A stretch of 56,449 nucleotides of DNA, filler included, from Platydemus manokwari (taxonomy: Eukaryota), in assembly GCA_037951405.1 (NCBI GenBank). It is 5 parts of 5 records of this genome, joined end to end, with 100 filler letters (N's around TTAATTAATTAA, not from the genome) between each part and the next. Parts side by side here need not be neighbours in the genome. Positions count along the whole stretch, not along the records: positions 45,273 to 56,449 come from JBBMOY010855534.1; 4 more parts are not named here. The stretch is one strand, 5' to 3'. Numbering within the stretch: the first letter of the stretch is position 1; the number at the start of each line of letters is the position of its first letter. Positions 45,374 to 48,960 of this stretch are shown in pieces. The notes beneath the pieces were generated by a model, which saw only the letters and a program-made list of their open reading frames with translations, was not told the origin of the DNA and made no database searches. The translations under genes and the position numbers were made by a program.

Positions 45374-46528
45374 TCAATAGTTTTTATTTTCATTAGCCCT
45401 TGATGGAATCCTACTAGCCTGTTGCCAGGCAGTATTTGGTGTTGGTGTATTAAAGATGACTCAATTATCATTTTATATTGAAAATATTTTTATAATTATT
45501 CCATGCATCTCGATTCTCATTGCTCCATGGTCTTCTACTTTTTCTGTTTTCATTGATCTCGATAATTCCAATTATTTCCATTGTAACGGTTTCCAGGACT
45601 ATTTCCTCTATAACCAATATATCGAATTACAGGGCTGCTTCCCCTATTATATCTATTCTAATATTATTCCCTGTATTATCAATTTGATTCATCTGTGCTT
45701 CATCCTCTTTTTCTTCCTTTCGAAATTGCTCAAACATCTTTTTTATTTTTCTTCATTCCATTGTTCCAATATCAAGACTATTTTGATCCTCTGCAGTTAT
45801 AATATCTATTGCTTTACTTTTTAGGGTAACTTCATTTGTCCATGTGATTGTATTAATTTCGTTTTGTTTACTTTTACTCAATTTATCTTATTGAGTTTAT
45901 AGTTTCGACCTCCACTTAAAGCTTCTATTTTCTTTGCCTTTTGCACAGGTTGCTAAAAATTAGCAATGAATGTTGTTATAAATGCGTTTCTAATATATCC
46001 ATGTAATTCGATAATAAACTGGGCTTTAAGCATTTGTTTTAGGTTATTCCCTGCCTCAAAAGCTCGTGCTCTTAATTTCTCTAATCTCATAGCGAATTAT
46101 CCTATCAACTCATTCGGTCTTTAATAACAATCTCTAAAAGCCAATGCATACATCGGTTGTAACTCACTTTCTATAACTATTTCATTTTTCATCAATTGTT
46201 TCAACGCTTCATACAATATATTTGTATGTTCAGGTCTACGTTTTAACTTTTTATAAACATCATAAGTGTAACCTTCTAAATGTAACGGTGATCTGATTAT
46301 TTTTTGTGCATTATTCCATCCATATATTTCAGCTGCTGCTTTATATTCTTCAAAGAAATCAGCAAATACATCTTGATTTCCAGAATATGATTTTATAGGT
46401 CATTTAAACGTCCTTTGCACATTAAAATTATCTTCATTTTGTGCTACGTTGTTTTGATTCTGGTCTCGATTGTTGTTATTTTTAAAAATATTCCTATTTC
46501 TCAAATGATATATAACTTCTTGTGCCAT
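45374..46528 (-). pseudogene. gag: Ty3/Gypsy gag (capsid) pseudogene, missed by the ORF track
   Basis: Manual translation: MAQEVIYHLRNR...YSGNQDVFADFFEEYKAAAEIYGWNNAQKIIRSPLHLEG...YEALKQLM...RDCY*RPNELIG*FAMRLEKLRARAF...LKAQFIIELHGYIR. This is the standard retrotransposon capsid pattern with several in-frame stops, then an N/R/G-rich tail. Confidence 0.85.
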
Positions 46529-47444
46529 CACAAATACGTTAAATTAATTATCAAACGATTAAAATTCAAACAAACAATACTTATCTATCACAATTCAAAC
46601 AAATTTTAATTTACTAATTATTCTGTTGGGTCGTGTATGTTGTTTAAAGTTCTTTGACCAACTCAACAGCGTGAATTCCTCTTTAAATAAGTTTGAGTTA
46701 ATGAATCAACACGCAAACTCGTTAAAAGCTTTATTAATTATAAAACACAAAATTACACAAATTTCTTAGCTCACACAGAAAATTTAAAAAACAATTAAAT
46801 ATGGTTGTCTCACCGAGATCGTGAGAACCTTTTTTTCACCTTAAAAGTTTAATATAGATTTTAGATAAAATATTTATTATCTCCTAAGGGGGATCCTTTA
46901 GAGTGCTATTATAATTACCCTTTTCACTTAAATAAAAATGTCTACTTATTTACTTTCGTTTCGTTATCAAATAAGAAGTTTTATTTCCTTTCAAATTTTT
47001 CTTTCGCAGTTAAAACGATTTATGTTTTCGATTCCCTACTAGTTCGTCGAGATTTCAAAGAGTGAATTGTGATTGGAATCCATCAGCTTATATAGATGCT
47101 GAGATTCGGTATATTGTACCTAGCAATTTCCATCACTCGTAAATTTTAAGTCATTTTTAATCTTGGACCAAACTGAATTTTAACGCAAACAAATTAATTT
47201 TTAGGAGTGGCCGATTCGAATTTAACGAAACGACCTATATATTAATATTTTAGACAAATATAGATTTTAAGATATATTATTTTGACTTTAGTAACTTTTG
47301 CACCTTGGAATTTACTCCTACTTGTTGTAATATACAATATTGCCAGCACTCTCGCAAAAGACGTTTATGAATTTTCTTCTGTCGATTTAATCTTCTAGCG
47401 ATAAAAACAGTCGTCGGCAGTTTGATTTTATTCTCTTCTAAGAT

Positions 47445-48960
47445 TCAAAACCTCGGTGACCGGTGGTGCTCCATCGTGTCATAGTGTGCAGCACTATTTT
47501 CTTCTCCCGGTACTACAGATACCAGCTTGCACCCAAAATCTTTGAGTTTCATTGGGACGGGGATTCCTGATTTCTTGTATGGGCTTGGCCTTTCTGTTAT
47601 TTTAATTGGCGGATTTGTTGGGGTTTTTAATGCCACTGCTGCCAAATTTCGTTGTGTTTCATTAATTTCTGAATTTCGTCTTTCCTCCTGTTCCTTTTCT
47701 CTTTCCCATCGCGCTTTAGCTTCCTCGTACGTTTCTGTTCTGATCGAGGATGTTTGCGAAGTTGATGGTTCATTTGGTCTGGTTTCGATGTGCGCGGCTA
47801 ATGTTTTTTCCAGGTTGGGATTTATTATATCATTGGCCCATTTTTCAGCGGAATTCCTTGCTTATAACTCTTCTTTTTTCCGCATTCTTTCCACTGGCCT
47901 TAGTTGTTTATCTAGAGCCATTCTTTGCTCTCGTTGTTGATTTTCTTCTTGTAGTTTTGTTCTGCTTGTCTTCTCTTTTCTTCTTGTTTACGCCTTTGTT
48001 CTTGTTCTCGCTTTTCTTGTTCTAATTTTAATTTTTGCAAATCTGCTTTTTCCTTCTCTTCTTTTTCCCGTCGTCTTTGGAGCTTCGCCTCCTTTTCTTT
48101 TTCTTCCATTTTCCTGTATATTTCCAATTTATGTCTCTGGCGCTCTTTCCAATATTCAATTTATTCTTGTTCTTTGATTTGTTTTAGCTTCTCCCGTTCT
48201 TCTTTCCGTATTGCTGTCCTTTTTGTCTCTGAATTCATTGTTAATTTTTTCTGATCCGCGAGTAGCTTGTGCGGATTGCCTCAGGGGTTGATGGATTATT
48301 CGCTCTAAGGTCGCGTATTGTGATCCACCTTACAAAATTCGTTTATTTCTTCCTCGTCATTGAGATAGTTGAAGCCTTCTGAATTGTTGGGGGAGGAAGA
48401 TGGGTGCTCCTGGGGTGGTTGATTTCCGATGCTTTGAACCCATTGTTTGGTTAACTCCATTATAGATGCGGCTTGGGGTCTTGGCTGTTGTTCTGCCGTG
48501 TGAATAGGGTGAAGTATCCATTCCGACTCTATTTTTTTTATAGATAGAAATTATTGAATCCAACGATTTTAAGAGTCCCCGAATGGCATGCTGTTGTGAC
48601 CATTTTCCTTCAGCTCGGCTTCCGCCTTTGTTATCCTGCTTTCTGTTCTCTATTCGTGATTCGATTTTGTCCTGTTTGACATCTGAGCTTATAGTTTTTA
48701 ATGGTGATTCTATTCTATCTAAAATAGAGCTGTGACTTGTTGATCTTATAAATGAAACATTATATTGATTTCCGGGTACTTTGTAGGTTTCAATCACCAT
48801 TCCTCCATGAGTTACATACATTTTTATTTTATCTCCGCTCCCCCAGCGGTCCCATTGTCGCCACCCGATTTTCCAATTGTGATAATATTGTGACTATGCC
48901 GTGGTGGTGTCCATTAAACAACAAATCATCATGATAGTAAACATTCCGTATGTCTTTTTG
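47445..48960 (-). pseudogene. Unknown post-integrase extension (hydrophobic segment, Trp-rich stretch, K/E/R/Q coiled coil, Pro-rich tail)
   Basis: The integrase frame continues through single stops: RYNLR...GMFTIMMICCLMDTTTA*SQYYHNWKIGWRQWDRWGSGDKIKMYVTHGG. Coiled-coil fragment at 47912-48127; tail at 47445-47645. Confidence 0.6.

Follow-up and report, generated by a model that had tools for sequence, protein, structure and literature searches.

Gene order and domains at the locus

The window, by which we mean the whole 56,449-nucleotide stretch of DNA that was analysed, is AT-rich eukaryotic DNA in which several contigs are joined by linkers of the form N44-TTAATTAATTAA-N44 (8881–8980, 23172–23271, 33365–33464 and 45173–45272). 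The linkers are artificial, so adjacency across them is no evidence of linkage. All parts of the element described here lie on the last contig (45273–56449), which is gap-free, with no N from the linker end to 56449. On its minus strand we directly observed the order X (56449–54758), env, pol, Y, a non-coding stretch and a capsid-like frame. The sequence-only reading had placed a decayed capsid frame after the pol extension, in the same contig and orientation, and reading frames, phmmer and HMM searches confirmed a capsid gene behind env–pol–Y on that strand. On another contig an intronless gene for a U1A/U2B'' spliceosomal protein of 224 aa with two RRMs was found at 26818–27492 (+), which marks the host as a eukaryote. 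A 122-aa frame at 32725–33090 (+), probably an exon, matches the beginning of Peptidase_M20 (E 2e-5), and a dispersed repeat occurs in two copies, 72–83% alike, at 25793–25993 and 44162–44325. Searches for tRNAs and Rfam families gave no match. A bacterial promoter scan, not relevant here, returned hits at chance level and was discarded.

The frameshifted env (52986–54757, minus strand) matched the HSV/gB-type (class III) fusion glycoprotein family (Pfam Monjiviricetes_fusion PF24664, E 2e-33) and was 34–39% identical to env of four relatives (P0028, P0048, L003 and L004). It begins at 54757, ahead of the protease at 52363, which puts a gB-type env upstream of the protease. The broken pol (49092–52795, minus strand) matched Pfam RVP, RVT_1, RT_RNaseH, Integrase_H2C2 and rve in the PR-RT-RH-IN order of Ty3/gypsy elements (Metaviridae). 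Within it the domain map assigned the protease to 52363–52079 (−), followed at 52012–51758 (−) by a segment between PR and RT labelled dUTPase-like by its position, after PMC6431247. This segment gave no match to Pfam dUTPase, and it matched the corresponding segment of the relative P0004 (E 6e-4). Judged by its predicted domains, the env–pol block has a Burro-type enveloped Ty3/gypsy layout. Burro of planarians is described as gag-CCHC-...-Ubl-BCL2-env-PR-dUTPase-like-RT-RH-IN (PMC6431247), and a GAG-ENV-POL order is reported for errantiviruses of Nematoda, Bryozoa and Platyhelminthes (PMC13524379). Placement of env before pol is therefore already known from these accounts.

Integrase is followed by a broken, charged, coiled-coil-like extension, Y (47274–49091, minus strand). 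It had no Pfam match, and a transmembrane search at a cutoff where the L003 tail gives two segments found none. A stop lies at 47445–47447 and the Y frame continues beyond it for ~55 codons, to 47274. The non-coding gap of about 0.9 kb in the sequence-only reading agrees with the 917 nt from 47445 to 46528, but may be nearer 0.75 kb because the Y frame runs on.

ORF X (54758–56449, minus strand) consists of broken frames upstream of env and is open at 56447, the window edge. It is likely the rear half of a gag polyprotein, in the position of the Ubl-like, AT-hook and Bcl-2-like regions; relatives carry Ubl, an RGRP motif and a Bcl-2-like domain where X sits. This assignment is drawn mainly from position in L003 and P0028, because direct homology is weak. 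Pfam AT_hook matched X with an E of 0.013. Two chunks of X ranked first and second of 1128 against a Bcl-2-like profile, yet with E values of only 0.5–1, and a Ubl profile did not match X. An initial profile of the relatives' Ubl/Bcl-2 regions found nothing in X, and hhalign comparisons of X with the Ubl/Bcl-2 regions gave weak probabilities of 0.4% and 5.3% (shuffles 2/40 and 0/40). AlphaFold models of X were poor (pLDDT 58 and 45), and Foldseek searches with them had no match at E ≤ 0.001. The ESM Atlas returned no result for X or for gag.

The decayed gag capsid frame runs from an ATG at 46528 to 45887 (minus strand), with 4 internal stops in 214 codons. The capsid HMM placed the predicted capsid domain at 46408–45923 (−). 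A frameshifted N/R-rich gag linker follows (45471–45886, minus strand) and the copy breaks off near 45471; no intact CCHC was found in the window gag piece. Pfam alone identified the frame weakly, as PNMA (E 0.05). A phmmer search against 1.84 billion representatives gave 36 matches (best E 5e-14), with 21 matching one of the capsid families Retrotrans_gag, Ty3_capsid and PNMA (E ≤ 0.01). A zf-CCHC was present in 13 of the 36. A profile of the window gag and 15 of these matches found the dArc1, dArc2 and PNMA2 capsids in the PDB (E 5e-7 to 2e-4). Assignment of the downstream gag piece to the Ty3/Arc-type capsids, weak by Pfam, is thus firm through relatives. In a capsid tree the window gag sat on a long branch within no supported set, and a word-based homologue search with gag as query retained 0 of 68 candidates. 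The sequence-only reading had called this the only recognisable gag. It is the sole capsid match in the whole window, but this is because the window stops at 56449, within a frame that is still open. Since X is open there, the gag of the upstream unit is expected past that point.

Relatives and what follows pol

A metagenome scan with the pol alignment yielded 174 candidate stretches and, from these, 11 loci, six close (L001–L006) and five distant. Scans of viral contigs with P0028 and with the pol alignment found no relatives. The relatives are distant, with pol core identities of ~38–53% in RH–IN HSPs, and only one of them holds both gag and pol. This is L003, an intact ORF of 3703 aa with the order gag-CCHC-Ubl-Ubl-Bcl2-env-PR-PR-dUT-RT-RH-IN-tail, with an exonuclease ORF behind it. 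L004 matches the L003 layout from Ubl onward; L001, L002, L005 and L006 are cut inside pol. P0028 is a single ORF, gag first, with capsid, CCHC, weak ubiquitin and Bcl-2 matches and env; it is homologous to the window gag (E 3e-5) and 38% identical to the window env.

Across the 11 loci the capsid HMM had one significant match, 5' of env in L003, with a score inflated by a near-identical sequence in the profile. A capsid behind pol was found in 0/6 close loci and 0/11 overall, among relatives distant enough that the window's own family may differ. DNA after the integrase core extended 4.2–8.2 kb in five of the six close loci and 2.8 kb in L006; the integrase-to-capsid distance in the window is 3.0 kb. 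The ORFs behind pol in the close loci were exonuclease, unassigned or weakly Ubl-like. Five of the six carried an RNase_T-type exonuclease ORF (L001:8592–9920, L002:9043–10371, L003:12085–13470, L004:10617–12104 and L005:3712–5556; E 1e-11 to 3e-3), of which no homologue was found in the window. An aspartic-protease-like segment lies behind integrase in P0005 (residues 602–692), with weak tblastn matches in L001 and L002. At L003:15990–16020 a purine tract is followed by TGTTAC, likely the start of the 3' LTR of L003. No terminal overlaps were found in L001–L006.

These layouts bear on one option in the sequence-only reading, an element of permuted order. The family would then transpose as X-env-pol-Y-gag, and a promoter within the spacer would drive gag separately. 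The gene order in the window contig is the order it requires, but the relatives give no support, as gag comes first in both L003 and P0028 and the close loci lack a capsid behind pol. We regard such an element as improbable.

Contig depth, spacer and codon usage

One sequencing run (X1) contained the locus in its contigs and is possibly the source of the window; among the listed runs, no RNA run contained it. Summed contig depth in X1 is not copy number, and bins are not independent. Exact contigs of the window copy had a depth of 14–20. Deep contigs for gag, env, pol and X were similar (300–650), with single deep contigs averaging 547 in gag (n=4) against 425 in X/env/pol/Y (n=7; p=0.07). They diverged from the window by 11% in gag, 10% in pol and 12% in X (one contig each). 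A depth of 14–20 against 425–547, together with similar divergence, suggests a family with young copies covering all parts: the window would be an older copy, and the family would comprise roughly 20–40 young copies. The deep contigs differ from the window copy at the 46528 ATG codon, so the gag start there is not secure. At 45471 three contigs run on into other sequence, and depth drops to 197 by 45357–45437. The bin at 45276–45356 has a contig depth of 108118, i.e. it is common to abundant repeats.

Between Y and gag lies an LTR-like spacer with undefined ends (46572–47462, minus strand), recognized by an excess of summed contig depth. Its bins had a median of 1153 (10 bins, leaving out a spike of 32234 at 47058–47138), against 425 in flanking bins (17 bins, leaving out the two at 45276–45437; p=4e-4) and 618 in coding bins (24 bins). 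The spacer was thus ~2–3 times deeper than neighbouring bins, as expected of an LTR, with several sites inside it at a depth of 253–460 only, not twofold. The spike is a short stretch common to a very high-copy repeat (depth ~17000 in 62–68 contigs at 47112–47113), and represents either a separate repeat or an LTR promoter core. A candidate TATA-like box inside this stretch, TATATAAG (47094–47087), and two candidate AATAAA motifs (46985–46980 and 46735–46730) were noted by eye on the minus strand. A weak candidate polypurine tract (46828–46842, minus strand) is one of seven such purine runs in 46400–47500, and a small hairpin (46808–46826, minus strand) follows it. The window contains no long direct repeat of the spacer, both element ends being missing from it, nor could a second copy of the LTR, TG...CA termini or a PBS be established. 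A PBS candidate at 46813–46824, like the PBS of a Macrostomum element, was rejected (19 window matches against 16.2 expected), as was a likeness of the spacer to the PPT/LTR start of L003, which 516 of 1000 shuffles equalled in score.

Equal depth across all parts, a spacer that is not cleanly twofold at every site and the TATA-like box are also compatible with the permuted element. Against it, X runs off the window edge still open, with deep-contig depth continuing there (567); other copies extend beyond the gag break at 45471, and no part has deeper bins than the spacer. It would likewise be surprising if the young family of ~20–40 near-identical copies had moved gag behind pol or formed head-to-tail arrays with one LTR per unit, with env–pol–Y–gag as the standard order and gag under its own promoter.

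Codon usage was the main evidence against assigning the capsid piece to the same family as the env–pol block. As the sequence-only reading had noted, gag is the more AT-rich, with a GC of 0.30 against 0.38–0.40 in X/env/pol/Y and a GC3 of 0.19–0.21 against 0.30–0.34. The GC3 difference gave p~1e-6 in a calculation with one Y piece out of frame, and the per-region values were redone in frame. GC was 0.28 over 46529–47271 and 0.32 over 47272–47447. Regional GC3 in L003 spans 0.14–0.26, its gag being GC-richer than its pol; the window gap of ~0.12 exceeds this internal spread and runs in the opposite direction. An unrelated Gypsy fragment, the third option of the sequence-only reading, was retained on account of this gap, which is genuine and exceeds what the regions of L003 show among themselves. 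Gag would then derive from another Gypsy family, itself probably Burro-like, that had inserted in or beside the env–pol 3' end and was truncated afterwards. The slightly greater depth of the gag contigs and the very high-copy stretch inside the spacer would fit such an insertion, and among the contigs listed none bridges Y to gag. The similar depth and 10–12% divergence of gag, pol and X speak against it, as do deep contigs found at points in Y, the spacer, the leader and gag. Nor is gag clearly richer in stops (4/170) than pol (11/1184 aligned codons, some off-frame). The strand is the same and the lengths are complementary: adding the 312 codons of the gag piece to the 564 of visible X gives 876, which falls within the capsid-to-env distances of 774–1170 in P0028 and L003, and no repeat common to the two pieces was found. 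Overall, we consider an unrelated origin possible but rather unlikely.

The junction itself could also be absent from the genome, the assembler having passed from the 3' LTR of one copy into the 5' LTR and leader of another. LTR collapse is a known assembly artefact; the assembly is of short-read style with artificial contig linkers, and the family is multi-copy. However, the window copy is ~10% off the deep contigs and is matched by exact single-depth contigs of 555 nt (pol) and 318 nt (Y), so its k-mers should be mostly unique, with the caveat that exact contigs across the spacer are absent among those listed. A misjoin of this kind seems to us a doubtful explanation.

On balance, and with modest confidence, we take the capsid piece to be a second unit, truncated, from the same family as the env–pol block, and to lie behind an LTR common to both units. 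The family unit would be LTR-gag-CCHC-(Ubl, Bcl-2-like)-env-PR-RT-RH-IN-Y-LTR, encoding a single polyprotein as in L003, with the gag of the upstream unit placed past the window edge. Two copies recombining through their LTRs may have produced the dimer, or a circular form may have inserted; a later cut near 45471 would have shortened the second unit. All the pieces here are broken, with stops and frameshifts throughout, and both units are dead. The unusual gene order is probably ordinary, gag most likely being the broken front end of a neighbouring copy. The head-to-tail gag-X-env-pol-Y option of the sequence-only reading thus fits best, but its description as non-canonical does not stand, since both the order and LTR-sharing tandems have been published (PMC6431247, PMC13524379 and PMC5932611).

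Comparison with known elements

The likeliest reading matters little in itself, as it adds to the enveloped Burro-like retroelements one more that is decayed and has a truncated copy beside it. The family it contributes is compact and divergent, seemingly with a young multi-copy form. If the permuted order proved to be the family's true unit, its ORF arrangement would fall outside what the survey in PMC13524379 covered, whose authors state that other arrangements were not searched for. Such a unit would show that gag need not stay part of the gag-env-pol polyprotein, and gag:pol ratios would then be set in a different way. A literature search with narrow phrases, which provides thin evidence, found no account of gag behind pol in LTR retrotransposons.

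The window element resembles Burro/GYPSM1, as far as PMC6431247 describes it, in its mononegavirus-like fusion env before PR, the putative dUTPase-like position between PR and RT, the PR-RT-RH-IN order and a Retrotrans_gag-type gag, with the relatives L003 and P0028 showing gag-CCHC-Ubl-Bcl2-env. Burro/GYPSM1 is a giant planarian element (over 30 kb), whereas the window element is much more compact in its visible part, which is cut by the edge. It has no visible BIR, MATH or ankyrin domains, and Ubl/Bcl-2 is weakly detectable in X. It also differs in being decayed, with the gag piece downstream and a spacer under 1 kb.

The HSV/gB-type GAG-ENV-POL errantiviruses reported in PMC13524379 likewise carry a gB-type env upstream of a Ty3/gypsy pol; they are intact and the window element is broken, and the likeness is one of layout. 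L003 shares the env-PR-dUT-RT-RH-IN order, and the window is 35% identical to it in env, 34–41% in pol and 28% in capsid. The ORF of L003 is single and intact, places gag first and encodes two proteases and a membrane-type tail, and an exonuclease ORF lies downstream of it. In the window, one protease was matched, the tail shows no transmembrane segment and an exonuclease is absent. Tandem copies of LTR retrotransposons that share one LTR are described as common and as arising through recombination between LTRs (PMC5932611). In the window we infer the LTR ends and the same-family identity, and the arrangement resembles these tandems in having a pol 3' region, LTR-like DNA, and a leader with gag, all on one strand.
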